A stretch of DNA of 64,000 nucleotides from an uncultured Mailhella sp. (GTDB lineage: Bacteria; Desulfobacterota; Desulfovibrionia; Desulfovibrionales; Desulfovibrionaceae): NCBI RefSeq assembly GCF_963931295.1, contig NZ_OZ007001.1, forward strand, positions 1,551,137-1,615,136. Direction: 5' to 3'. The notes beneath the pieces were generated by a model. That model worked only from the letters and a program-made list of their open reading frames with translations. It was not told where the DNA came from and ran no database searches. Below are positions 2 to 22,479 of this stretch, one piece after another (positions within the stretch are counted from its first letter, which is position 1; every line of letters starts with the position of its first letter). Both the position numbers and the translations under genes were made by a program.

Positions 2-1414
2 GAATTCGGCGGAAGCGTGGAGAACCGCTGCCGGTATCCGCTCATGATCATGAAGCGCATCCGTCAGGAAGTGGGCAACGATCTGGTCATCGAAGTGCGC
101 ATGAACGGCTCCGACATGATGGAAGGCGGCATCACCCCGGAGGACGCCGCAGAACAGGCCCTCATCCTTTCCGAAGAAGCGGATATGCTGCACATGACCT
201 GCGGCACCCGCCTCGACGCCTCCAGCCGTCCGAAGATGCATCCCACGCACTTCCTTGAAAGAGCGCACAACGCCAGAGCCAGCGAACTTGCCAAGAAGGC
301 CGGCGTCAAGATTCCCGTGGGCGTGGTGGGCAGCATTCACGATCCCGATCTCGCCGAAAAGCTGCTCGAAGAAGGCAAGGCCGACTACGTGCTCACGGCG
401 CGGCAGGCCCTTACCGACAGCGACTTCGTCAACAAAATCCGTGAAGGACGCCTTGAGGACATCCGCCCCTGCCTGCGCTGCGACTTCTGCCTCGACGGCT
501 CCAAGCGCGGCTCCCTCACCACGGAAGTGAACATCCGCAAGGACTCCACCTACGACAGACAATGCGCCGTCAATCCGCTCTGGTATCAGGGCATCACCAA
601 GAAGCACCTCATTCCCGCGCCTTCCAGAAAGCGCAAGGTCGTCGTTGTCGGCGGCGGCATTGCCGGCATGCAGGCAGCCTTCACCGCGGCCGAACGCGGC
701 CACGACGTCACGCTCTACGAAAAGAGCGACAAGCTCGGCGGTCAGGCGCTGTTCTCCGACGGCATGTGGTTCAAGCAGGAAATGAAGGCCTTCCGCGAAT
801 ACCTCATACGTCAGGTTCACAAGTCCGGCGTCCATGTTCTGATGAACGTCGAAGCCACCCCGAAACTGATTTCCGAAATCGACCCCGACGTGGCCATCAT
901 CGCCGTGGGCGCGGAACAGGTGGTTCCTCCCATTCCCGGCATCGACGGCAAAAACGTGTTCATGTCCTGGGACGTGTTCGGACACTACGAGCTGCTCGGC
1001 AAGCGCGTGGCCATCGTGGGCGGCGGTCTTGTGGGCTGCGAACTTTCCATTGACCTCGCAGGCCAGGGGCACGACGTCACCGTGGTGGAACTCGGACACT
1101 ATCTCGCCGCTACGGCGCAGATCAGCGAACGCATGCACATCATGGAATTCATGAAGAAGAACAACGTCGCCTCTCTGGTGGACGCCACGGTAGAGTGCAT
1201 CGAACCTGACCACCTCAACGTGCGCACGGCCGAAGGCCCGCAGACCATTGAAGCCGACAGCTTCATCATCTGCACGGGCACCCGCTCTCTGACCGACCTG
1301 CGTGATTCCTTCCGCGACACGGCCTTTGACGTCATCAACATAGGCGACTGCGTACGCGCCTCCGACATCGTCAATGCCGTCCGCACCGGCTGGGACGCCG
1401 GCGCAACCGTCTGA
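2..1414 (+). CDS. NADH:flavin oxidoreductase (old yellow enzyme barrel + Fe-S + FAD/NAD domain; FadH/BaiCD-like architecture), 5'-truncated by window edge
   Basis: Frame is open from base 2 (EFGGSVENR, OYE motif). CLRCDFC...C Fe-S motif; two Rossmann motifs GGGIAG and GGGLVG. Confidence 0.85.
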   Translation, partial: EFGGSVENRCRYPLMIMKRIRQEVGNDLVIEVRMNGSDMMEGGITPEDAAEQALILSEEADMLHMTCGTRLDASSRPKMHPTHFLERAHNARASELAKKAGVKIPVGVVGSIHDPDLAEKLLEEGKADYVLTARQALTDSDFVNKIREGRLEDIRPCLRCDFCLDGSKRGSLTTEVNIRKDSTYDRQCAVNPLWYQGITKKHLIPAPSRKRKVVVVGGGIAGMQAAFTAAERGHDVTLYEKSDKLGGQALFSDGMWFKQEMKAFREYLIRQVHKSGVHVLMNVEATPKLISEIDPDVAIIAVGAEQVVPPIPGIDGKNVFMSWDVFGHYELLGKRVAIVGGGLVGCELSIDLAGQGHDVTVVELGHYLAATAQISERMHIMEFMKKNNVASLVDATVECIEPDHLNVRTAEGPQTIEADSFIICTGTRSLTDLRDSFRDTAFDVINIGDCVRASDIVNAVRTGWDAGATV

Positions 1415-1508
1415 CATCAACGGGATGCCGCAAGCGCCCGCCGCTTACGGCATCCCGTCCGAAAAGCTCCCCCCGCACACCGCCTTCCCCTCTGCAAGGA
1501 GTGCCTTT

Positions 1509-2987
1509 ATGTCCACCCTCCGCCTATCCAATCTGACGCCTACCAAATGGTTGTGTTTTGCCATCGTTCTGTTCTGCATGTTCGGCGCTCCCGAGCTGGT
1601 GTCCGGCACCGGAGCCATGACCGATCTCGGAGCAAGGATCATATGCATCTACGTGGGCATGGCCTTCGGCTGGCTGACGCTCGACCTTGCCTGGCCCAGC
1701 GTTCTGGGCATTCTCGCCGTGGGTCTCTCGGGCTACTCCAGCGTGAACAACGTGCTCAAGATGTGCTTCGGCAACAGCAGCGCCCTGCTCGTGTTCTTCG
1801 TGTTCATCATTACGGGCGTCATCGACAAGGCGGGCGTCTCCCGCTGGATAGCCCTTCACATCTGCAGTCTTCCCATCGGCCGCGGACGGCCCTGGGTCAT
1901 GACCTTCTGCATTCTCGCCGCCATCATGACTCTCACCCTCTTCATCGGCGTGTCCCCGGGCGTGCTGGTCGTGTGGGCCATTTTCTACAGCATCTGCGAA
2001 GTGTACGGCATCAAGCCCGGCGAACACTGGGCAACCATGGTCATGGTGGCCATTCCGTTCTTCGGCAGCGTCACCGCCTCCATCTTCCCCTTCAAGTCGG
2101 TTCCCGTTGTGGCCCTCGGCGCGTATTCCCAGCTCAGCGGCGGCGACGTCATCGACTTCCCCCAGTATTTTGCCTGGTCCCTCATCGTGGACTCCATGAT
2201 CGTCGTGCTTACGCTGGCCTTCATGCGCTTCGTGCTCAGGCCGGACGTGAGCAAGATCTATAACGCCAAGGTGTACTTCAATCCCGAAGAGCTGCGCCTC
2301 ACCACCTATCAGAAGATCGTGCTTCTCTGGTTCTTCCTGTTCATCGTCATGATGATGGTCCCCTCCCTGCTACCCTCGCACTGGGAACTTACCAAGTTCT
2401 TCAAGAAGCTCGGCAACACCGGTTGCGCCGCCCTCATGTGCGCCATCTTCTTCGCCTTCGATTTCGTGCAGAACGAATCCATGCGTAAGACCATCGCCTC
2501 CAGCGTGCGCTACGACGCCCTGCTCGTGAACTTCTCCGCCATCGGCATTGCCGGCGTCATGTCCAACGACGCCAGCGGCATCTGCCAGTGGTTCGTGGAT
2601 CTGGTCACGCCGCTGACCTCCGGCCAGAGCACCGTGGTTATTCTCATGCTTCTGGTGGCCATGGCCAGCCTGATGACTCAGTTCCTGAACAACCTCGGCA
2701 GCACGGCCATCTACATTCCCATAGCCTACAGCGTGGCCGTGGCGGCAAACATCAATCCGGCGCTCGTGTGCATGTGCTGCATCGCCGCCCTGAACATCGG
2801 CATCCTTACGCCTTCCGGCAGCAACCCCGCGGCCATGCTCTACTCCAACGCCGTGTGGGCTCCGGGACTGCGGCCTTACGCCTATGCCGCATGCTTCCTG
2901 GCCATCAACTTCGCCGTGCTCATGCTCGTAGGCGTGCCCATTGCCGAATTCTTCTTCCCCAGCATCCTTCCCAATTCCGTGCTGTAA
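1509..2987 (+). CDS. SLC13/DASS-like (ion transporter superfamily) permease
   Basis: About 12 hydrophobic segments; NNLGS and TPSGSNP motifs typical of DASS hairpins; AAGGAG RBS at about 1496-1501 before ATG 1509. Confidence 0.7.
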   Translation: MSTLRLSNLTPTKWLCFAIVLFCMFGAPELVSGTGAMTDLGARIICIYVGMAFGWLTLDLAWPSVLGILAVGLSGYSSVNNVLKMCFGNSSALLVFFVFIITGVIDKAGVSRWIALHICSLPIGRGRPWVMTFCILAAIMTLTLFIGVSPGVLVVWAIFYSICEVYGIKPGEHWATMVMVAIPFFGSVTASIFPFKSVPVVALGAYSQLSGGDVIDFPQYFAWSLIVDSMIVVLTLAFMRFVLRPDVSKIYNAKVYFNPEELRLTTYQKIVLLWFFLFIVMMMVPSLLPSHWELTKFFKKLGNTGCAALMCAIFFAFDFVQNESMRKTIASSVRYDALLVNFSAIGIAGVMSNDASGICQWFVDLVTPLTSGQSTVVILMLLVAMASLMTQFLNNLGSTAIYIPIAYSVAVAANINPALVCMCCIAALNIGILTPSGSNPAAMLYSNAVWAPGLRPYAYAACFLAINFAVLMLVGVPIAEFFFPSILPNSVL

Positions 2988-11800: not shown

Positions 11801-12072
11801 AAGACGGCCTGCTGCCCTTCCGCGGCGTGGGCGCGCTGCTCGGCAAAAGCGACGACTTCGCGCCGCCCCCCGTGGAAGAAGAGGAAAGGCTGCTCTACGT
11901 GGGCATCACCCGCGCCTCGGAAGCGGTGTTTCTGTCCTCCGCGGCAAGCCGCACCCTCTACGGGCACAAGCTTGCGCTGCCGCCTTCGCCCCTGCTGCCG
12001 CTCTCGCACTTTCACGCCGTCAGGCTGACGCGCCACACCAAAACCACGGCAAGTCAGCTGAGCCTGTTCTGA
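8851..12072 (+). CDS. Endonuclease Q (PHP)-family domain fused to a UvrD/Rep SF1 helicase
   Basis: N-term DLHIHS, TGD, PAHIWTPW, GLSSD, SDAHS, GKYHLDGHRAC..CPVCG; C-term GPGAGKT (Walker A), DEVQD, GDPDQSIYGFRGA, TMHASKGLEF, LYVGITRA. Confidence 0.88.
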   Translation: MFRADLHIHSRFSRATSSRLTLPHLAAWAGVKGIDVLATGDFTHPVWRQELRDALELDESGLFRLKTPLSREDLAREIPHLAGMEPREPRFMLEAEISSIYKKNGAVRKIHSLVYVPDFESADRLCEKLEAIGNLKSDGRPILGLDVKDLLSIVLDIPRAYMIPAHIWTPWFALFGSKSGFDSLDECFEDLAPHIFAAETGLSSDPDMNRCWSHLDRLLMVSSSDAHSGENLAREATLFDGAISYDGIFDALHQKRGDTTYAGTLEFFPEEGKYHLDGHRACGVVLEPAECMKLNNICPVCGKPLTVGVLHRVLELADRTEPPCPGKDFQSLIPLPEVLGEILHCGSKTRKVQEKYADLLDHFGSEMTILQDTPEHDLRHAWPELGEAVSRMRAGKVIRHAGYDGEYGTIRLFEDEENAPSLLERVPAARRAPLKKSRAQKKNLNADTSPTDGGSCKKSAENRPDFSPESFSPMQRKALEAGPGPVLVLAGPGAGKTRTLVGRLVRLLRSGTPASDIVAITFTRRAAEEMRSRLAAAMDGEENAPLPEADTLHALALRHWPGEAPVVLSEEGARKAFASANPTLDKKDASRLYDQLELGRETLNVPGELAPLAERYRQWKKERNLADYTDLPETWLAELRSRNYGAAKPWKHILVDEVQDLSPLQKALVEALTPADGSGFFGIGDPDQSIYGFRGADAGIEESLRARWPQLCVLGLTESHRSAAAILAAGHDALAGHGACGELSSVTGTSATLQWMGAPTAEREAAWIADRIAYLIGGTSHQQADLHETLAGCHLDSGSCSPGEIAVLCRIKALIPPIRAALERRGIPCSAPEADAFWTDESADALLQAAARFHRQEEHSRKEAAFLDADRFPLLAAMASAAPTDEGRKEDVLDDVPAETWAEGPDAVVARCPERFAPLFSDSAAFKRLRQAWKEHGGWPKLLDYVSFRREIDMVKGQAEYVQLMTMHASKGLEFKVVFIPGAEDGLLPFRGVGALLGKSDDFAPPPVEEEERLLYVGITRASEAVFLSSAASRTLYGHKLALPPSPLLPLSHFHAVRLTRHTKTTASQLSLF

Positions 12073-12116
12073 CGCGCCCCGCGCGCCCGCCTGCGGGCAG
12101 ACTTCCGGCGTCATCG

Positions 12117-12163
12117 AAAAAACAAAGGCCGTTCTCCCCAGGGAAAACGGCCTTTGTTTTTTT
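12117..12163. terminator. Bidirectional intrinsic terminator between the EndoQ-UvrD gene and the GRE operon
   Basis: 17-bp stem AAAAAACAAAGGCCGTT / AACGGCCTTTGTTTTTT. Confidence 0.85.
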
Positions 12164-12174
12164 CGGAATCCGCG

Positions 12175-12969
12175 TCAGGACGCCTGCCCCGACGGCTCCC
12201 GCTTCCTGAACACGATGAGCGGGCAGTTCTGGCAGATGTCCGCCCCAGGGAAGGGGTGGCCCGAACGCGTGATGGACACGCCGCCCGTTTTTTCCACGCG
12301 GTCGGCCATGCGTTCCACCACGGCGCGGATGTGAGAGCCGGGAATCATCACGTTGACTTCCCCGCGCTCCATCTTGCCGGAATTGTAGCTGCCCGCGCAG
12401 GCCAGGGTCAGATTGGCCTGACCGTGAATGCAGCTGAACGCCGTGCCGCCGCACACCGCGGAATTGATGCACAGGGACGGGCGGAAGGGATGCACGCCGG
12501 TAACGGCCATCCAGTCGCCCACAAGATGATACGCCTGCATGTTGTCGCAGCAGAAATGCACGACGTCCGGCATGTTCTTCTGTTCGCGCAAAGGCCGCAT
12601 GACCACGGCCAGCGGCGCTTTTTCCATGCGGGGCTTGCTCTCCACAAAACCGCGCACCTGCGCCTCATCCGTGCCGAAGCGCAGAAGATCGCGCACCACC
12701 GCGTCGCTCACTTCGTCCACGCCGAAGCAGCAGCGGGCGTCGAGACACCAGAGCTTCTTCATCTCCAGAAGCACGGTGCGCCCCTCCATGCGGGCCCCGA
12801 GCTCCGCCTGACAAAACGTCAGCGGCCGCACCGGCTCGCAATATTCGTTCTCCGCCCGAAACTGCTCCACGCTCTTTTCGTCGAACAGAAACGTGATGCC
12901 CACAGGCTCGTGCATGAGGCGAAGAAAACGCATGAGACACTCATGCATGCGCGCGTAATCCATATTCAT
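12175..12969 (-). CDS. DUF169 family Cys-rich protein
   Basis: EPVGI...FCQA...WC...NSAVCGG...LACAGSYNSG.MERGEV..MIP pattern; many Cys; RBS GGAGAG. Confidence 0.7.
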   Translation of the reverse strand: MNMDYARMHECLMRFLRLMHEPVGITFLFDEKSVEQFRAENEYCEPVRPLTFCQAELGARMEGRTVLLEMKKLWCLDARCCFGVDEVSDAVVRDLLRFGTDEAQVRGFVESKPRMEKAPLAVVMRPLREQKNMPDVVHFCCDNMQAYHLVGDWMAVTGVHPFRPSLCINSAVCGGTAFSCIHGQANLTLACAGSYNSGKMERGEVNVMIPGSHIRAVVERMADRVEKTGGVSITRSGHPFPGADICQNCPLIVFRKREPSGQAS

Positions 12970-13143
12970 CTTCTCTCCTCCCGCAGCGCGCCGGATCCCC
13001 GAAGGCCTCCGTCACGCCCTTGCCGTCGTCCGGCCCGTTCACGGCAGAACCCGCCTTCCGGTTTTGCCGGAAAGCGGGCCTCACTTCGCCGCAACGCGTC
13101 TGCAACGCGCTTCGCGGCGCTCTTCAACAGGAACAGTTCCGCA

Positions 13144-13443
13144 TCAGTTGTCGGAATCCAGCGCCTTGACCTCAACCTGCTTTTCTTCGTTGAGCCCAAG
13201 GGAGAACCTGCGGCCGTACCTCAGCAGAAAATCGCCGTCGGCAATGAAGGTGACGTCTTCCACGGTCACGCTTTCATCCTCGTCCTCGTCCTTTTCCTCC
13301 AGAGCGAGCCCCAGAATGATGCGGGAACGGCAGCCGCCTCCCAGCGTGTATTCGCGCAGGCGCACACAGGTTCCTTCATCTTCGTCTTCCAGCATGGAAC
13401 GGAGTTTCGCCAGCATTTCTTCATTGACAGTCACTGTGAACAT
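13144..13443 (-). CDS. HesB/ErpA-like small acidic protein, Cys-containing paralog (GGGC38)
   Basis: 99 aa; VRLREYTLGGGC..IILGLALEE...V..IAD pattern of HesB/IscA-like fold; about 63% identical by hand alignment to the upstream Sec paralog. Confidence 0.75.
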   Translation of the reverse strand: MFTVTVNEEMLAKLRSMLEDEDEGTCVRLREYTLGGGCRSRIILGLALEEKDEDEDESVTVEDVTFIADGDFLLRYGRRFSLGLNEEKQVEVKALDSDN

Positions 13444-13541
13444 GGTCTTCTCCCGTGTTGCGCAGGCACTTCTGCCGACGGTTCCGCCCCGTATCCTGCT
13501 TCCGGGCCTCCCGGAAAACGGATCCTGTCCCGACGCCTTTC

Positions 13542-13835
13542 CTAAGCGTTCAGAGCCGTCAGCACGACCTGCTTCTCTTCATTGAAGCTCAGCTCGTAAG
13601 CCTTGCCGTACTTTGTCAGAAAATCATTGTCTGCGATGAAGGGGACGTCTTCGACGAGAATCTTTTCATCCTCGTCTTCGTCCATTTCGTCCATGCCCAG
13701 ACCGAGCACGATCTTGCAATGTCATCCGCCGCCCACTTTGTATTCGCGCAGACGCACGCAGATTTCCTCATCTTCATCTTCCAGCATGGCGCGAAGCTTT
13801 TCCAGCATTTCGTCGCCTATGGTCACGGTAAACAT
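13542..13835 (-). CDS. HesB/ErpA-like selenoprotein (Sec38, GGGUHC), 97 aa
   Basis: ATG 13835 with CAGGAG RBS. In-frame TGA at 13722-13724 aligns with Cys38 of the paralog, and homology continues for 59 codons to TAG at 13542. SECIS-like hairpin follows the TGA. Confidence 0.85.
13693..13709 (-). promoter_or_regulatory. Bacterial SECIS-like hairpin
   Basis: GUGCUC-[GGUCU]-GGGCAU 6-bp stem, with its G-rich apical loop starting 18 nt after the UGA; absent at the same position in the Cys paralog. Confidence 0.7.
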
Positions 13836-13860
13836 AGCTGCTCCTGTTGATTTTGCGCTG

Positions 13861-14754
13861 TCACACGACAACGGTGGAAAGGCCGTGTCTTCTGAAGCGT
13901 TCCCGAACTTCCCTGAGGGCTTCCGGCGTGTACTGTTCCACCGGCGGCAACGGCTTTCCGAGGGCCTGATACTTGCTTTTTCCAAAGGCATGGCACGGCA
14001 TGATCTCTATTTCGGAACGGCCGTACCTGCCGAAAAACTGCGCCATGGCTTCAAGATTCTCGTCCGAATCGTTGAGGCCCGGCATGAGCGGCATGCGGAT
14101 GCGCACTTCCTTGCCCGACTCCAGCGCCGCGCCCATGTTGCGGAGTATGAGGGCGTTGTCCTGCCCGGTAAGCTCCCGGTGTCTTGCAGGATCCATGTGC
14201 TTGCAGTCGAAAAGGAAAAGATCCGCCAGCTTGAGGGCCTTGTCGAAGCGTTCTTCCGGGCAGAAGCCGCAGGTGTCCACGGTCACGTGCCAGCCCTCAT
14301 AGAGAGAGGCTTCCGCAAGATCGAGAAAAAACTCGCCCGCCGCCGTGGGCTCTCCGCCCCCGAAGGTCACGCCGCCCCCGGAATTTTCATAGAAAAGCGC
14401 GTCCTTGCGCACAACGGCGATCACTTCGTCCACGCTCATGACCCTGCCGCTCATTTCTCTGGCCTTGGTCGGACACGCCGGGGCGCAGGCTCCGCAGGAA
14501 AGGCACTTTTCCCTGTCGAGCAGAGACACGCCGTTTTCCATGCGCACGGCGCCCGCGGGGCAGACCTTTTCGCAGGCTCCGCAGCCCGTGCACAGATCCT
14601 GAAAGAACAGAAGCTGAGGGGCAAAGCTCTGGGATTCGGGATTGCTGCACCAGAGGCAGCGGAGCGGGCAGCCTTTCAGAAACACGGTGGTTCTGATGCC
14701 GGGGCCGTCCTTGGTGGACATGCGCTGAATGTTGTAAACCGTTCCCTTGCTCAT
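13861..14754 (-). CDS. Glycyl-radical enzyme activating enzyme (radical SAM with 2x[4Fe-4S] ferredoxin insert)
   Basis: DGPGIRTTVFLKGCPLRCLWCSNPES; CTGCGACEKVCP and CLSCGACAPACP; GGVTFGGGEP. Confidence 0.95.
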   Translation of the reverse strand: MSKGTVYNIQRMSTKDGPGIRTTVFLKGCPLRCLWCSNPESQSFAPQLLFFQDLCTGCGACEKVCPAGAVRMENGVSLLDREKCLSCGACAPACPTKAREMSGRVMSVDEVIAVVRKDALFYENSGGGVTFGGGEPTAAGEFFLDLAEASLYEGWHVTVDTCGFCPEERFDKALKLADLFLFDCKHMDPARHRELTGQDNALILRNMGAALESGKEVRIRMPLMPGLNDSDENLEAMAQFFGRYGRSEIEIMPCHAFGKSKYQALGKPLPPVEQYTPEALREVRERFRRHGLSTVVV

Positions 14755-14884
14755 GGATCCCCTCCCCGCGGGCGGCCCGTGCCGTTCCGGCGGCCTTCTG
14801 CGGCCCCCGTTTTCCGAAACCCCCGGGCGACCGGTGTTCCGCTCTTATGCGAGGCGGCGGAGCCGGGCCCCGCCGCCGTTCGTT

Positions 14885-17329
14885 TTACTGGGCGTACTCG
14901 GTACGCTTGATTATTTCATTCTGCACGCCGCGGTCGAGGCGGGTGAAGTAGGCGCTGAATCCGGCCACGCGGACCACGAGATCCTTGTAGTCCTGCGGAT
15001 GATCCTGCGCGTCCTGCAGCGTGGCGGAGCTTACGCAGTTGAACTGAATGTGCGAACCGCCGTAGTCGCAGTAGGTCTTGATGAGCGAAATGAGATTGCG
15101 CGCGCCCTGCGGACCTTCCAGCGCGGAGGGCAGGAACTTCACGTTGAAGTGGTTCGCGCCGTAGCGCACGGTGTCGATGGCTTCCGCACCGGACTTGATG
15201 AGGGCGGTGACGCCTTCATGATCGGTGCCGGGCATGGCGGACACGCTGCCGTCGGTAAGGGCCACGCCTGCCTTGCGGCCCGTGGGCAGAGCGCCCATGA
15301 GCGAGCCGAAGTAGTTGTGGTAGGAGAGCGAGTAGGCGTCCAGAGGCGTTCTGTGGCCGAAGCAGTCCGGGCCGACGGAGCTGTGGATTTCATCCACGTC
15401 GCGGTAGAATCGCTGCACGAATTCTTCCACTTCGGGATAGTCGTTGCCGTGCTTGGGAGCCTCGAAGCACATCTTGCGGATGTCTTCATAGCCTTCAAAG
15501 TTGGCGTTGAGGGCTTCCAGCAGCTGTTCCATGGTGAGCTTCCTGGTGTCGAACACCAGATGCTTGATGGCGAGCAGCGAGTTGGCGGCGTCTATGCCCG
15601 CGGTCATGATGGGGTTCACCTGCGGATACTTGGTGCCGCCGGCTTCTTCGCACATGCCCTTTTCCACGCAGCCTTCGTACATGACCGAGCGGAAAATGCT
15701 CGGCACCACCTGCAGACGGGCCATCTGGCTGAGATCGGAGTGATGGCGGGAAATGGTGAACAGGTGCTTGAGCTGCGCCTTGCAGGCGTCGTACACTTCT
15801 TCAAAGGTCTTGAATTCGCGAGGATCGCCGGTTTCCGCGCCCACCACCTTCTTGGTGGAGGGATCCTTGCCGTTGTGGAGCAGAAGTTCCACGACCTTGG
15901 CGAGGCAGGGCTGGTCTTCCTGCGTGATGAAGCTGCCCATGCCGCAGATGCCCGTGGACACGCAGCCGTAGTTGCCGCAGTTGCGGGCGTCTTCGAGCGT
16001 GATGCCGCCTTCGTACTGAGAGAAGCGGGCGAGATTGCGTTCGATGACCACGGTGTTGTTGAGAATCTGAGGCTGGCCGGAGCCGCCGCGGATGCAGTCC
16101 ACCACCTTGTTCATGTAGGAAGTCTTGAGCTTCGGATGATAGAGCAGGGTCAGCGTGGGCTGAATGCCGCGCATTCTGATCTGGGTTTCCAGCAGCAGTT
16201 CTTCCAGTTCGGTGCTGGCGTCGCGGCCGTAGGCGTCCACGCCGCCGATGGTGATGGTCTGGCCGGTGTGGCCGGAAAGCGTCTTGGCGTAGGAGCCGCC
16301 CTGGTATTCGCCGAGTTCCATGTGCTTGATCCACTGGAACTTCAGCAGGGTGATGACCTGTTCGCGGGTCAGCTTTCCTTCGTCGATGTCCTTCTTGTAG
16401 AAGGGATACATGTACTGACCATAACGGCCGGGGGAGGTGGCGCAGGCCATCTGTTCCACTTCGATGGCGAGGTGAATGAACCAGAAGGACTGGATGGCTT
16501 CACGGAAGTTGCGGGCGGGATATTCGGGCACGCGACGGCAGATTTCCGCGATTTCCAGAAGTTCGGCCTTGTTCTTGGGATCGGTTTCGGCTTCGGCCGT
16601 CTTTTCCGCAAGGTCGGCATAGCGGTGGGAATGGGCAATGACGGCTTCCGTGGCCACGATCATGGCGCGGTAGAGGTCATGCTTTTCCTTGTTTTCCAGC
16701 GTGGTGGGGCAGTCGAGGAGGCGCTTTTTCAGATCGTCCACCACCCAGCGCAGGCCCTTGTTGAGCGCCTTGGGATAGTCGGCGATGCCGGAACCGGAAG
16801 CCACGCTCACGTTGTCGTAGTACATGCCGGCCTTGGAATACTGCGCGGGATTCACACCGTACTTGTCCTTGTACATCTTGTTGTTCAGGGCAATGCAGGT
16901 GCGGTTCTTCCACTTCTTGTACACCTTTTCGAGCAGATCCTGGGTCTCCTGCGGAATCTTCATTTCGCCGAGAGAGGTCATCTTGGCGAGCTGCATTTCG
17001 TCCTTGATCCAGGACACGTTCCATTCAGGATACGGATTCACGCCGCAGCGGATGCCCGTAAGCGTGCCCACGATGGGGTTGCCGTCCAGAAAAATCTTCT
17101 TGGTCAAGAGCACGCGTTCAAACAGTTTCGCCCGGATGTAGAGCGTGGATTCGCCGGCGAATTCATCATACACGTCCAGAAGGCAGCGGAGGCGTTCCGG
17201 ATCCATGACCTGAGGCGCGGTCATCAGGAAGTCCTTCAGCTCCTGAACGCGCTGTTCGGCGGTATCCCAGTTGATGCCGTAGCCCTGCCCTTCCACCGGG
17301 GCAGGCGAGGTGAACTGCATGACAGACAT
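14885..17329 (-). CDS. Glycyl radical enzyme (PFL2-like superfamily), substrate unassigned
   Basis: 814 aa; C-terminal VRVAGFSAYF with Gly790; active-site loop NCGNYGC456VSTG; SPGRYGQY and TIGG motifs. Lacks the adjacent Cys-Cys of true PFL. Confidence 0.93.
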   Translation of the reverse strand: MSVMQFTSPAPVEGQGYGINWDTAEQRVQELKDFLMTAPQVMDPERLRCLLDVYDEFAGESTLYIRAKLFERVLLTKKIFLDGNPIVGTLTGIRCGVNPYPEWNVSWIKDEMQLAKMTSLGEMKIPQETQDLLEKVYKKWKNRTCIALNNKMYKDKYGVNPAQYSKAGMYYDNVSVASGSGIADYPKALNKGLRWVVDDLKKRLLDCPTTLENKEKHDLYRAMIVATEAVIAHSHRYADLAEKTAEAETDPKNKAELLEIAEICRRVPEYPARNFREAIQSFWFIHLAIEVEQMACATSPGRYGQYMYPFYKKDIDEGKLTREQVITLLKFQWIKHMELGEYQGGSYAKTLSGHTGQTITIGGVDAYGRDASTELEELLLETQIRMRGIQPTLTLLYHPKLKTSYMNKVVDCIRGGSGQPQILNNTVVIERNLARFSQYEGGITLEDARNCGNYGCVSTGICGMGSFITQEDQPCLAKVVELLLHNGKDPSTKKVVGAETGDPREFKTFEEVYDACKAQLKHLFTISRHHSDLSQMARLQVVPSIFRSVMYEGCVEKGMCEEAGGTKYPQVNPIMTAGIDAANSLLAIKHLVFDTRKLTMEQLLEALNANFEGYEDIRKMCFEAPKHGNDYPEVEEFVQRFYRDVDEIHSSVGPDCFGHRTPLDAYSLSYHNYFGSLMGALPTGRKAGVALTDGSVSAMPGTDHEGVTALIKSGAEAIDTVRYGANHFNVKFLPSALEGPQGARNLISLIKTYCDYGGSHIQFNCVSSATLQDAQDHPQDYKDLVVRVAGFSAYFTRLDRGVQNEIIKRTEYAQ

Positions 17330-17578: not shown

Positions 17579-19054
17579 ATGCTCATAGACAGCAAGAACT
17601 TCAGCGACGTCAGCATGAACGACGTGATGACGCCGGCCATGCGGGCCATATGGGATCATATGAGCATAGGCGTGGCCATCGTGGACGGCAAAGGCATCTG
17701 CGTGTACATGAACGAGATTCAGGCGCGCGTGGACGGCTTCACCACGTCCGGCGTGGTGGGCAAGCACATCACGGAACTGTACGTGCCCAACGGCATGGCC
17801 CGCATTCCCACCATGGAATGCCTGTACCGGGGCGAGCCGCTTCTGCGCAAGGCCTACTGGTACAAGACCATCAACAATTCCCTCTTCTCCTCCGTCACGG
17901 ACTTCTATCCGCTGTTCGATCACGGCATGAAGGACGGCGTGCTGGCCTTCACCATCTGGGTGGACAGCGCCCTGCTCACCGGCGAGGCAAAAATGAACAC
18001 CCGCGCGCCGGCCTCAGCCAGCGACAGCACAAGATACACCTTCGAGAGCATCATCGGGCACGATCCGGCCCTGCGCGGAGCCGTCAGCGACGCCAAAGTG
18101 GCCGCCAAGAGCCCGGTTCCGGTCATGATCTGGGGAGAGAACGGCACGGGCAAGGAACTGTTTGCGCAGGCGATTCATGCGGCAAGTCCGCGAAGAAATC
18201 ATCCGTTCATTGCGGTCAACTGCGCGGCCATTCCGGAAAATCTGCTGGAAGGCATACTGTTCGGCACCTCGAAGGGAGCCTACACCGACGCCGCGGACAA
18301 GCCCGGACTTTTTGAAAAGGCCGACGGCGGAACCCTGCTGCTCGACGAACTCAACTCCATGCCTCTGGGCCTTCAGGCCAAGCTGCTGCGCGTGCTTCAG
18401 GAAAAAAGAATACGCCGCCTCGGCGCCAGCTCGGAAAAGGACGTCGACGTCCGGGTCATCAGCATTCTGAACGAGCCCCCGCTCACGGCCGTGAGCCGCG
18501 GCATTCTGCGCAACGACCTTTATTACCGCCTCGCCGTGGTGGGCATTGCCGTGCCGCCGCTTCGGGAACGGTTGGAAGACATTCCGCTGCTCATCGCTTC
18601 GTTTCTTCAGCGCGCCGAAGACGCTCCCGCCGGCGTGCGCGTTTCCGACTCCGTCATGAAGCTGTTCTGGGGCTATTCCTGGCCGGGCAACATCCGCGAG
18701 CTTCTGCACGTCATCGAGGGCAGTCTGGCGCTGCTCGGAAGCCGCAACGTCATTACCGAAGACAGTCTGCCCCGGCAGTTCCGCGAATCCTGCCTCAGCA
18801 GACGCGCCGCCGAAGCCGCGCCTGCGGCCGTGCGGGAAGAGGACCTTCCCCTGCTGGACGACTACCGCAACGTGCGCCGCAACAGCGTGGTTCCTCTTAA
18901 AGAAAAGATCAACGCCTTTGAATCCCGCTGCATCCGCAACGTGCTGCGCGTGACCGGCGGCAACGTGTCCAAGGCCGCAAAAATCATGGAACTCACCGGC
19001 CCCGGACTGCGCTACAAAATGAAGCAGCTCGGCATCACCGAAGAGGATTATTGA
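17579..19054 (+). CDS. Sigma-54-dependent enhancer-binding protein (PAS-AAA+-Fis HTH; RocR-like architecture)
   Basis: GENGTGKELFA, GTSKGAYTDA (GAFTGA variant), LLLDELNSM, LRNDLYYRL, WPGNIREL, C-terminal HTH GNVSKAAKIM. Confidence 0.93.
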   Translation: MLIDSKNFSDVSMNDVMTPAMRAIWDHMSIGVAIVDGKGICVYMNEIQARVDGFTTSGVVGKHITELYVPNGMARIPTMECLYRGEPLLRKAYWYKTINNSLFSSVTDFYPLFDHGMKDGVLAFTIWVDSALLTGEAKMNTRAPASASDSTRYTFESIIGHDPALRGAVSDAKVAAKSPVPVMIWGENGTGKELFAQAIHAASPRRNHPFIAVNCAAIPENLLEGILFGTSKGAYTDAADKPGLFEKADGGTLLLDELNSMPLGLQAKLLRVLQEKRIRRLGASSEKDVDVRVISILNEPPLTAVSRGILRNDLYYRLAVVGIAVPPLRERLEDIPLLIASFLQRAEDAPAGVRVSDSVMKLFWGYSWPGNIRELLHVIEGSLALLGSRNVITEDSLPRQFRESCLSRRAAEAAPAAVREEDLPLLDDYRNVRRNSVVPLKEKINAFESRCIRNVLRVTGGNVSKAAKIMELTGPGLRYKMKQLGITEEDY

Positions 19055-19735: not shown

Positions 19736-19752
19736 TTGGCATGGTTCTTGCT
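19736..19752 (+). promoter_or_regulatory. Sigma-54 (-24/-12) promoter of APC permease
   Basis: TTGGCATGGTTCTTGCT, a near-consensus TGGCAC-N5-TTGC. Confidence 0.85.
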
Positions 19753-19911
19753 TCACGTGACCCATCTCACATTATCTCATTCAAACCCCTTCCCCAAAAG
19801 TTGTTTGCTTGTTGTCGGTCCGCAGTGCCCGAACCTCCCTTTTCGGAGATTCCCCGGGCGAACCTCGCCTGCTTCCGCAGGTTTCCCCTCTTCATTCAGC
19901 AGGAACTCACC

Positions 19912-21411
19912 ATGTCAGAAGCCAAACTTACGAAATCCTTGTCTCCCATGCAGGTTTGCGCGCTCGCGCTAGGTTCCATTGTCGGTTGGGGCTGCTTTGT
20001 TCTTCCCGGCGACATGTTTCTTCCTTCCGCAGGACCTCTCGGCACCCTGCTCGGCTTCCTTGCCGGCGCCATCCTCATTTCCTTTGTGGGTGTGTGCTAC
20101 AGCTACATGGTCAAATACGCCCCCGTGGCCGGCGGCGCATTCACGTATGCCTACATAGGCTTCGGCCCCACCGCCTCGTTCATCTGCGGCTGGGCGCTCG
20201 TCATCGGCTACATCGCCATCGTCATGATCGACATAGCCGCACTCTCGCTCATCTTCCGCTTCCTCTTCCCCGGCGTGTTCGAGTTCGGCGAACTCTACAC
20301 CATCGCAGGATGGAAGGTGTATGTCGGCGAAGTGCTGCTCATGACCGCCGGCACCATCGTCTTCGGCTGGCTCAACTACCGCAGCGTGGGCATGGCCGGC
20401 AAGCTCCAGCTCATCCTCGCCTTCATGCTCACCTTCGGCATCGTGGCCTTCTTCTTCGGCTCCGCCTCCCTGGATTCCGCCGGCATCAGCAACCTCGTGC
20501 CCCTCTTCGCGGAAAACAAGTCCCAGGCCGCCTGCATCATGAGCATCTTCGCCCTCTCGCCCTTCCTCTTCGTCGGCTTCGACACCGTGCCCCAGGCCTC
20601 GGAAGAGTTCGCCTTCGAGCCCAGCCGCTGCCGCAACATCATGGTCGTTTCCATCTTCGTGGGCATGATCCTCTACGCCATGGTCATGCTGGGCGTGGCC
20701 ATCGCCATCCCCTACCCTGAACTCCTCGCCAAGATGGAAGAAATGAGAGCTTCCGGCGGTCATGCCTGGGCGACCGGCTACGTGGCCACCCTCGCCTTCG
20801 GCAAACTCGGCTCCATCATTCTGGCCTGTGCCGTGTTCGGCGCCGTCTGCACCGGCATCAACGGCTTCTTCGTGGCCGCCAGCCGCCTGCTCCTCGCCAT
20901 GTCCAGAGGCCGCATCCTCCCCGAATGGTTCGGACGCATCCATCCCACCTACCATACCCCCTACAACGCCATTCTCTTCACCGCCGTTCTCGCGCTCCTC
21001 ACCCCCTTCGCCGGCCGCTCCGCCGTCGGCTGGACCGTGGACATGAGCTCCGTCGGCACCGGCATCGGCTACCTGTTCACCTGCCTCGTCGCCCGCCGCG
21101 CCATCCTCAACAGCGGCGAAACCCGCGGCAGAAGCATCGGCCTGTTCTGCTGCGTCATGGGCACCATCTGCTCCATCCTGACCCTCATCCTGCTCCTCAC
21201 TCCCGGCTCCCCCGCCTACATCTCCTTCGCACCGCGCTGCGTGCTCGCCGTGTGGGTCATCATGGGATTCGTGTTCTACTTCTCCAACAAGAAAGTCTGG
21301 AGCAATCTCTCCACTGAGGAAATTTCCAGGAACATTCTCGGCGGCACCGACATCCCCATCCTGTTCAACAAGAAAACCGCCCCCTGCACCATCGAACGCG
21401 AAAACGCCTGA
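19912..21411 (+). CDS. APC-family amino acid/polyamine permease
   Basis: ALGSIVGWGCF TM1 motif, PVAGGAFTY, FVGFDTVPQASEE, SRLLLAMSRGRILP..F; CAGGA RBS before ATG 19912. Confidence 0.92.
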   Translation: MSEAKLTKSLSPMQVCALALGSIVGWGCFVLPGDMFLPSAGPLGTLLGFLAGAILISFVGVCYSYMVKYAPVAGGAFTYAYIGFGPTASFICGWALVIGYIAIVMIDIAALSLIFRFLFPGVFEFGELYTIAGWKVYVGEVLLMTAGTIVFGWLNYRSVGMAGKLQLILAFMLTFGIVAFFFGSASLDSAGISNLVPLFAENKSQAACIMSIFALSPFLFVGFDTVPQASEEFAFEPSRCRNIMVVSIFVGMILYAMVMLGVAIAIPYPELLAKMEEMRASGGHAWATGYVATLAFGKLGSIILACAVFGAVCTGINGFFVAASRLLLAMSRGRILPEWFGRIHPTYHTPYNAILFTAVLALLTPFAGRSAVGWTVDMSSVGTGIGYLFTCLVARRAILNSGETRGRSIGLFCCVMGTICSILTLILLLTPGSPAYISFAPRCVLAVWVIMGFVFYFSNKKVWSNLSTEEISRNILGGTDIPILFNKKTAPCTIERENA

Positions 21412-21747: not shown

Positions 21748-22479
21748 ATGGACACCACTTCGCTCATCGTTTTTCTCTGCTGGTTCGCGGGAGGCTTCGT
21801 CTCCGGCCTCACGGGCATAGGCGGAGCCATGGTCGCGGTTCCCGCGGCCGCCCTTGTTCTCCCCATGCACGTGGTCATTCCCCTCAGCTGCATCCTCAAC
21901 GCGGCCATGGACGGGAGTCTGGCCTGCATGCACTTCCGCCACTGCCGCGTCAAAGCCCTCTGGCCTCTGCTGGTGGGCGCGCTGCCCGGATCGTTCGCGG
22001 GACTCTACATTCTTCAGATGGTGTCCGACGCCGTGCTTCAGGGCGCGGTGGGCGTGCTGCTCGTGGTCTATGTGCTCTGGCAGCGCGTGGCCAGGGCCGG
22101 AAGCAGGAAGGAAGATTCCTGGATTCTCGGCGGCACGGCGGGCTTCGGCGCGGGACTTCTCGGCACGGCCATCTCCTTCGACGGCCCGCCCGCCGGAGCC
22201 TACGCGCTCTACCGCGGATGGTCGCCGCGCGAAGTGCTGGGCACGCTCGGCGTCTTCTTTCTCGTGCGCAGTCTGTTTACCTGTCTTCTTCAGGCTCAGG
22301 CCGGATTCTACACGCCGCAGGTTCTCGGCTACGCCATGTACGGCATACCCGCCTGCATGCTCGGCGCCGTGTGCGCCTTTCCGGTGGTAAAGCGCATCCG
22401 CGTGGAACTGTTCCGCCGCGCGCTCATGGCCGTGATCGCTGTTGCCGGCCTCGTCTGCCTGTGGCAGGCCCTGCGCTGA
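21748..22479 (+). CDS. TauE/SafE (sulfite exporter) family membrane protein
   Basis: AGGFVSGLTGIGGAMV and internal repeat GAGLLGTAISFDGPP; about 8 TM. Confidence 0.8.
   Translation: MDTTSLIVFLCWFAGGFVSGLTGIGGAMVAVPAAALVLPMHVVIPLSCILNAAMDGSLACMHFRHCRVKALWPLLVGALPGSFAGLYILQMVSDAVLQGAVGVLLVVYVLWQRVARAGSRKEDSWILGGTAGFGAGLLGTAISFDGPPAGAYALYRGWSPREVLGTLGVFFLVRSLFTCLLQAQAGFYTPQVLGYAMYGIPACMLGAVCAFPVVKRIRVELFRRALMAVIAVAGLVCLWQALR

Follow-up and report, generated by a model that had tools for sequence, protein, structure and literature searches.

Selenoproteins of the HesB-like type, with selenocysteine (Sec) in a small IscA-related protein, have been known since the first surveys of prokaryotic selenoproteomes, and a 2026 review places them in TIGR01911 with the motif UxGP (PMC13188914). 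The supplement of Zhang et al. 2006 lists 11 HesB-like sequences, of which those of Desulfovibrio vulgaris and D. desulfuricans read ...APGGUSGPRLALALDEP... and end in Cys-rich tails (PMC1794560). The present work concerns a 64,000-nucleotide stretch of the genome of an uncultured Mailhella sp. of the family Desulfovibrionaceae (assembly GCF_963931295.1, contig NZ_OZ007001.1, positions 1,551,137 to 1,615,136; referred to below as the window) and, within it, a small gene on the minus strand at 13542..13835, located directly behind the gene for the activase of an oxygen-sensitive glycyl radical enzyme (GRE) and followed by a Cys-containing paralog. Comparative sequence data leave little doubt that 13542..13835 is one gene for a 97-residue selenoprotein in which UGA is decoded as Sec. 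The whole reading, in which this gene encodes an accessory protein of the family NF033940 for a clade of GREs lacking a catalytic Glu and the Cys twin is its selenium-independent version, is in our view very probable.

The HesB-like family (TIGR01911/NF038090) resembles the window protein in being a small protein of the IscA/HesB fold that carries Sec at the first conserved Cys and occurs in anaerobes, including Desulfovibrio, with coexisting Sec and Cys forms. However, the window protein has GGGU-H-x-K instead of U-x-G-P, lacks the Cys-rich C-terminal tail, and scores below the cut-offs of both HesB-like models, and linkage to a GRE is unreported for the HesB-like family. The signature GGGUH / CVRLREY occurs in none of the 11 HesB-like sequences of the 2006 supplement, and the Sec form of NF033940 is in none of the searchable selenoprotein lists. 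Judged by these features, the window gene belongs to a second Sec-containing family within the HesB/IscA fold, distinct from the TIGR01911 subfamily. The first-pass annotation of this DNA was thus right that HesB-like selenoproteins are known in anaerobes, but the known ones form a different subfamily. A literature search returned no paper with the term 'ErpA-related' and none that relevantly linked a GRE with a HesB/IscA-like protein or with a selenoprotein. TIGR01911 is absent from the matches of the window gene and finds in this genome only another, classical pair. That pair of tandem Sec and Cys genes lies at G000:C1:2970731-2971339 (locus L081, about 1000-1900, minus strand) behind a cystathionine-beta-lyase-like gene; it has the sequence APGGUSGPRLALALDEP... 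and a Cys-rich C-terminal tail, and similar classical pairs were seen in three further genomes (G012, G064 and G079).

The Sec-form gene extends from an ATG at 13833..13835 to a TAG stop at 13542..13544, and the in-frame TGA at 13722..13724 (minus strand), the predicted Sec codon for U38, falls in the column of the family's conserved Cys. With TGA translated as U, 13542..13835 reads MFTVTIGDEMLEKLRAMLEDEDEEICVRLREYKVGGGUHCKIVLGLGMDEMDEDEDEKILVEDVPFIADNDFLTKYGKAYELSFNEEKQVVLTALNA, followed by the stop; its Sec motif is U-H-C-K, and Cys is absent from the C-terminus. The ATG is preceded by an AGGAG ribosome-binding site 7 nt upstream and by the stop codon of the activase gene 25 nt upstream, with no terminator-like site between the two genes, and the N-terminus MF... 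is common to all homologs, which matches this start. Translation table 11 yields only two fragments at this place, 13722..13991 and the GTG-started 13542..13709, the former beginning too far upstream, within the 3' end of the activase gene. BLASTP aligned the Sec copy with the product of 13144..13443 without gaps over the full length (62/97 identities, 64%; E 1e-40), with U38 opposite Cys38 of this neighbouring paralog. The first-pass annotation had noticed that the ORF 13722..13991 halts at a TGA aligned with Cys38 and that readthrough gives a 97-residue protein about 63% identical to its neighbour (61/97 by hand count); its coordinates and description are correct, and it was also right to propose that ORF calling had overlooked a real selenoprotein gene, which stands directly behind a GRE activase and has a Cys paralog in tandem. 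One could also suppose that the locus makes two small products, with translation stopping at the TGA after 37 residues and starting anew at the GTG at 13709 to give a protein of 55 residues, given that the GTG-started ORF 13542..13709 exists and that the nr database names a 57-residue fragment from Mailhella massiliensis as ErpA-related. However, both halves align gaplessly and in one frame with full-length Cys homologs, the predicted fold needs both of them, since its beta-hairpin of strands 25-34 and 41-50 spans the TGA, and neither a hairpin of the type of a selenocysteine insertion sequence (SECIS) nor the Cys/Sec column would have a role in a restart; two products are therefore very improbable.

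Such a hairpin follows the TGA at 13691..13711 (minus strand). Counted from the U of UGA, its 8-bp stem pairs nt 14-21 with nt 27-34, and its loop GGUCU occupies nt 22-26 (13699..13703), beginning 18 nt past the UGA. The SECIS-like element GUGCUC-GGUCU-GGGCAU proposed earlier is present, can be extended by two pairs, and has an energy of -9.0 kcal/mol. In an alignment of 17 Sec genes, 97.8% of the cells are paired; three pairs show compensatory changes on both sides, and the pair 15-33, formed by two third-codon positions, occurs as five pair types. Not one of 500 shuffles reached the observed values, and, as a control, sliding the partner by 1-3 nt left pairing at only 26-44%. Hairpin energies in the Sec genes of standard spacing range from -5.5 to -10.6 kcal/mol, and where two extra codons follow the UGA, as in two Sec genes, the hairpin lies 6 nt further downstream, with minimum free energies of -7.0 and -8.2 kcal/mol. 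In contrast, the same geometry in Cys paralogs gives +6.6 to -4.2 kcal/mol, despite the near-identical peptide I-V-L-G-L-G-M. Since the hairpin is kept only in the UGA copies, although the peptide is nearly the same, synonymous sites are constrained only where UGA is present. The Cys copy in the window had been described as having no hairpin; it has indeed lost the conserved one (5/8 pairs, +2.7 kcal/mol), but another, weaker hairpin without a GGU loop can form in it (-5.9 kcal/mol). The selD gene of this genome has a SECIS of the same geometry, in which a stem of 7 bp carries the 5-nt loop AGUUG (nt 23-27). In the GGUCU loop of the window gene, G23 and U24 match those of the Escherichia coli fdhF element, and the features of its hairpin agree with bSECISearch-type criteria. 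A point on the other side is that the 71 nt after the UGA, folded alone, are no better than shuffled sequences (z -0.9); moreover, an Rfam scan of 12000-15000 at E<=10 gave chance-level matches only and no SECIS family. Therefore, the support for the SECIS is comparative and does not come from this single sequence.

The genes required for decoding are all encoded in the 3.17-Mb genome: selA, selB and selD are present, as is tRNA-Sec, identified by aragorn, so that the idea of missing machinery fails. To place the TGA in its family context, matches to the family model in 201 genomes of the same family were read through TGA and then aligned. Many of them contain exactly one TGA, and in every Sec form it occupies the same GGG[U/C] column, with 38 distinct homologs (41 before identical copies were merged) in about 30 genomes; these come from Mailhella, Desulfovibrio piger ATCC 29098, D. 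desulfuricans, Maridesulfovibrio, Halodesulfovibrio, Desulfobaculum and others, and the other members of the family carry Cys in this column. Thus, homologs have either Cys or Sec at this position, as a selenoprotein family should according to the first-pass annotation. The ratio of nonsynonymous to synonymous substitution rates (dN/dS) 3' of the UGA, computed for codons 39-93 against 33 orthologs, was 0.02-0.57 in the 24 comparisons with unsaturated dS, and no second in-frame stop was found in any of the 33 orthologs, so that the sequence after the TGA is under purifying selection. These data bear on the alternative that the gene is a nonsense pseudogene, the TGA being a recent inactivating mutation in one of two duplicated Cys genes. 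In line with it, table-11 calling ends at the TGA and public gene calls contain many fragments of the family; the same TGA column in 38 distinct homologs of many genera, the low dN/dS without further stops, the hairpin with covariation only in TGA copies, and the complete Sec machinery make a pseudogene extremely improbable. Most likely, the UGA at 13722..13724 would be recoded by the genome's own SelA, SelB, SelD and tRNA-Sec, directed by the SECIS hairpin at 13691..13711. As side observations, selD (G000:C1:41867-42808, minus strand) itself carries an in-frame TGA, and so does one fdhA gene (G000:C1:73404-76409, plus strand). The dS of the Sec gene is mostly 0.1-0.5, compared with 0.68-0.99 for the adjacent Cys twin, in most of the same Mailhella genome pairs, a small sample, which suggests extra constraint on the RNA of the Sec gene beyond the hairpin.

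The Sec form is routinely mis-annotated, because gene callers systematically break it at the Sec codon. Of 1.84 billion representative proteins, 192 matched the family at E<=1e-3; the best 150 of these include about 20 N-terminal pieces of 37 residues whose end is the Sec column and about 57 C-terminal pieces, about 50 residues long, whose start lies just past it. Two metagenome gene calls translate the TGA as W or L, and the label ErpA-related that nr attaches to the M. massiliensis protein rests on a fragment of 57 residues. NF033940 appears to be a small family, largely confined to Desulfovibrionaceae. Since about half of the best 150 representatives are fragments split at the Sec codon, selenoproteins are undercounted in gut and marine Desulfovibrionaceae, D. 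piger and D. desulfuricans among them.

Both copies in the window match NF033940, the 'ErpA-related iron-sulfur cluster insertion protein', above its cut-off of 65 bits (141.4 bits for the Sec copy and 134.2 bits for the Cys copy), and the alignment spans profile positions 1-94 of 95. An AlphaFold2 model of the Sec protein built from 55 family sequences had a mean predicted local distance difference test score (pLDDT) of 93.5. The nearest solved folds found by Foldseek were E. coli IscA (1s98; template modelling score, TM, 0.70), SufA (2d2a; TM 0.71), HI1723, AQ_1857 and Bacillus subtilis YneR, with a probability of 1.00 for IscA/SufA. A phmmer search of PDB sequences produced only a marginal match, to HI1723 (E 0.053). 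In the model, Sec38 is located at the turn of a beta-hairpin, between strands 25-34 and 41-50, and in the alignment it falls on the GGGC of HI1723, where A-type carriers have their first cluster ligand. Besides the Sec/Cys residue, R28, R30, E31, G35, L44, D56, F66 and G77 are near-invariant across the family, while Cys26 is conserved in the main clade only. His directly follows Sec in 37 of the 41 Sec forms, and at Sec+2 Ala is found 24 times, Cys 10 times and Ser 6 times; the commonest motif is U-H-A. It had been stated that the Sec copy has U-x-C and the Cys copy C-x-S; this holds in the present genome (U-H-C and C-R-S) but is not a family feature. With no more than 10 of the 41 Sec forms carrying it, U-x-C is a Mailhella trait, and its reading as a redox motif was rejected.

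The fold raises the question of whether the protein is a canonical A-type carrier of iron-sulfur (Fe-S) clusters, which would assemble or repair the three [4Fe-4S] clusters of the neighbouring activase. Like IscA, SufA and ErpA, it has the same fold (TM 0.70 to 1s98), with its GGGC/U at the GGGC of HI1723 and thus with Sec at the first cluster-ligand position; its NCBIfam name designates a cluster insertion protein; and its gene adjoins that of an activase with two extra ferredoxin motifs. However, the C-terminal Cys-Gly-Cys of A-type carriers is absent, so that two of the three cluster ligands are missing, and the gene is linked in an operon to a GRE and not to isc or suf genes. Carrier models also fail to recognise the protein: scores are below the cut-offs for ErpA (NF010147, 22-25 bits versus 117), for PF01521 (23.9 versus 26.3 bits) and for NF038090 IscA_HesB_Se (24-28 bits versus 85, with 24.3 for the Sec copy), and TIGR00049 gives no match for the Sec copy and 16.3 bits versus 58.8 for the Cys twin. 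The descriptions of other GRE activases named in NCBIfam contain no such partner, in divergent loci the gene follows the GRE and not the activase, and the linkage is to one GRE clade rather than to activases in general. A canonical carrier is therefore unlikely, and the earlier proposal of Fe-S delivery to the activase is not supported, given the missing Cys-Gly-Cys and the scores of the carrier models. The same low scores also weigh against the functional part of the reading that we prefer, as do the facts that the sole Cys/Sec conserved throughout the family is one residue, with no canonical cluster-binding site visible, and that the small subunits described for GREs have another fold, as discussed below.

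The activase gene occupies 13861..14754 (minus strand; TIGR02494, 357.6 bits) and encodes a radical S-adenosylmethionine protein with two ferredoxin-like motifs, for which three clusters are predicted, in agreement with its first description as a three-cluster activase. Upstream of it, at 14885..17329 (minus strand), lies the gene of an uncharacterised GRE of 814 residues, whose Cys loop reads GCVSTG (15950..15967) where that of HypD reads GCVETG, so that the catalytic Glu of eliminases is missing. GCVSTG is shared by all 24 GRE orthologs that cover this loop, and [G/S]CVGTG is found in divergent paralogs; Ser at position +2 of the Cys loop is also found in the X-succinate synthases. Assignments of this GRE to IslA/IseG, HpsG, HypD, CutC or pyruvate formate-lyase (PFL) were rejected, as all equivalog models are far below their cut-offs, and its PDB relatives reach only E values of 1e-124 to 1e-72.

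The cassette as a whole consists of a divergent sigma-54 activator gene, the GRE, the activase, the Sec copy and, optionally, the Cys copy. In 30 related loci from named genomes, the run GRE-activase-Sec was found in 27, the pair activase-Sec in 28, and the divergent sigma-54 activator upstream of the GRE in 26. Among the 201 genomes of the family, NF033940 exceeded its cut-off in 21 and a GRE ortholog (E<=1e-150) was detected in 23, both being present in 20. Two of the three genomes with the GRE and no NF033940 have a weaker HesB-like Sec gene; in one of them (G028) it stands directly behind the GRE, in the order GRE, small protein, activase. In G216, which provided the only match in about 290 genomes of other families of the phylum, the Sec and Cys copies directly follow the GRE. 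Where a genome has two GRE paralogs, each is accompanied by a small-protein gene of its own. As the small gene lies behind the GRE rather than the activase in divergent loci, the link is with the whole GRE system and not with the activase alone. NF033940 thus tracks one GRE clade, and is encoded directly behind these GREs or behind their activase.

A 2026 review of GREs names small subunits for only three of these enzymes; all of these subunits are HiPIP-like or rubredoxin-like proteins with four-Cys metal sites, and none is IscA-like or contains selenium (PMC13450708). With HPAD gamma/HpdC, BSS beta/gamma and MASS beta/gamma/delta the window protein shares its small size and its place within a GRE operon, and some loci have a gene of the window type between GRE and activase. 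Their folds differ, however: the known subunits are HiPIP-like or rubredoxin-like, and the window protein has an IscA fold with one conserved Sec/Cys. Accordingly, one alternative is that the protein is a structural or regulatory small subunit of the GRE, or a partner like YneR, in which Sec/Cys would act in quenching or protection of the radical or as a reductant for an active site without Glu; it would then be a fourth kind of accessory subunit in GREs. The near-perfect co-occurrence with one GRE clade at one copy per GRE paralog, the gene orders GRE-small protein-activase in G028 and GRE-Sec-Cys in G216, which resemble hpdB-hpdC-hpdA, and the missing catalytic Glu in all partner GREs are in keeping with this alternative, as is a model in which YneR, with an IscA fold, is bound to the E1 alpha subunit of pyruvate dehydrogenase (9a4q). 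The B. subtilis protein (9a4q_B; TM 0.63) is likewise an IscA-like fold without the Cys triad and a partner of a metabolic enzyme, but it has 18% identity to the window protein, no Sec and another partner, so that only the fold is similar. Considering the different folds and the four-Cys sites of the small subunits known from GREs, and that operon position cannot tell a subunit from an activase helper, we regard a role as subunit or YneR-like partner as possible, though somewhat doubtful.

The function that we find most likely is a non-canonical accessory role for the GRE system, based on a metal or Fe-S site or on redox chemistry. The protein would be a dedicated accessory with the single conserved Sec/Cys as its working residue. 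This residue could bind, jointly with a partner, a metal or an Fe-S cluster, or it could be a redox-active selenol/thiol that acts on the activase or on the GRE. The conservation of such a Sec/Cys partner points to reactions or a maturation route that have not been described in GREs. More speculatively, and as a tentative idea only, NF033940 could represent a fourth class of GRE accessory subunits, an IscA-fold selenoprotein that provides a selenol, or a Se-ligated metal or Fe-S site in common with its partner, for activation, radical protection or turnover of the Glu-less GREs, with the recurrent Cys twins as repeatedly arisen selenium-independent spares; if true, selenium and glycyl radical chemistry would be linked for the first time.

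The Cys twin (13144..13443, minus strand), of 99 residues with Cys38 and without the conserved SECIS, lies 98 nt downstream of the Sec gene and, with a dN/dS of 0.06-0.12, is under strong purifying selection. The hydrogenases of Desulfovibrio, [NiFeSe] and [NiFe], are an example of a Sec/Cys isoenzyme pair. The pairs Fru/Frc and Vhu/Vhc are described for Methanococcus (PMC11097638). As in such isoenzyme pairs, the paralogs of the window differ at the Sec/Cys site and both are kept in one genome, but they lie side by side in what appears to be one operon, and selenium-responsive regulation is neither visible nor known. Sec and Cys copies occur together in about 13 related loci and the Sec copy alone in about 11, and in a few loci all copies are of the Cys form or the copies number three to four; the Cys twin is dispensable in many genomes. 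In a tree built from 70 family members, in which only 9 of 67 inner branches are well supported owing to the shortness of the protein, Cys twins are joined to the Sec copy from the same lineage in at least three places, with weak support, and the Cys twins of Mailhella form a clade of their own with a support of 99 and a long stem. Parsimony gives 11 switches between Sec and Cys, at least 2 of them forced, the number being uncertain. Some Cys twins retain part of the hairpin-coding sequence, e.g., CUUGGUCUGGG, which hints at conversion of Sec to Cys after duplication, and Cys twins seem to have arisen several times.

Two explanations of the pair were compared. If Sec and Cys copies formed an obligate heteromer, their tandem arrangement, the purifying selection on both, and the separate, well-supported clade of Mailhella Cys twins with its long stem would be accounted for. 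However, about 11 related loci have the Sec copy by itself, some genomes contain Cys copies exclusively, or three to four copies, and at several places of the tree a Cys twin is closest to the Sec copy from the same lineage, if with weak support. An obligate heteromer is therefore improbable, and interchangeable Sec and Cys versions appear to fit the data better. The Cys twin would then be a selenium-independent version of the same function, and the selenium-dependent/independent backup pair, co-transcribed with the activase, that was suggested at the outset is plausible. The arrangement of the genes speaks against the backup idea: no promoter-like site was found between the Sec gene and the Cys twin, and with the Sec gene located upstream in one apparent operon, expression of the Cys copy under selenium shortage is hard to explain. 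The relation of Cys-only genomes to the Sec machinery is mixed in a tiny sample, since one genome (G159, 95% complete) has no selA and another (G001) has selA but the Cys form only. With tandem Sec/Cys twins in two HesB-type families, this genome offers a compact system for asking why both chalcogen versions are kept.

Several other genes accompany the cassette. A DUF169 gene (12175..12969, minus strand), downstream of the Cys twin, belongs to it only in Mailhella-like genomes. The divergent activator gene at 17579..19054 (plus strand) encodes a sigma-54 enhancer-binding protein, whose best NCBIfam match, below the cut-off, is PrdR, the proline reductase regulator (314 bits versus 795), and the best equivalog of the activase is a hydroxyproline dehydratase activase (318 bits versus a cut-off of 425). 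A PrdR-like activator together with a hydroxyproline-dehydratase-activase-like protein hints at an amino-acid-like substrate. Further along the plus strand lie a gene for an APC-family amino-acid permease (19741..21411) and a 243-residue gene (21748..22479) that has no NCBIfam match and had been labelled TauE-like; both are conserved and usually found near the cassette in related loci. For D. vulgaris, a regulon study predicts that a sigma-54-dependent operon, DVU2272-DVU2269, comprising a 'PFL', an activase and two more genes, is controlled by the activator DVU2275 (PMC4641369); it is probably the same cassette, with candidate orthologs of the genes described here.

Outside the phylum, a bin labelled Bulleidia (Bacillota; L067) contains the full cassette with the sigma-54 activator and only Cys forms of NF033940, and a 2.3-kb sequence in a bin labelled Odoribacter splanchnicus (Bacteroidota; L071) carries just two NF033940 copies, again Cys forms; either mis-binning or horizontal transfer could account for them. 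Finally, the spacer between the Cys twin and the DUF169 gene (12962-13152, minus strand) is predicted to fold very stably (-89 kcal/mol, z -3.46), with a 14-bp hairpin GGCCCGCUUUCCGG/CCGGAAGGCGGGUU that has no U tail; the structure could be an attenuator, an RNA-stability element or a repeat.

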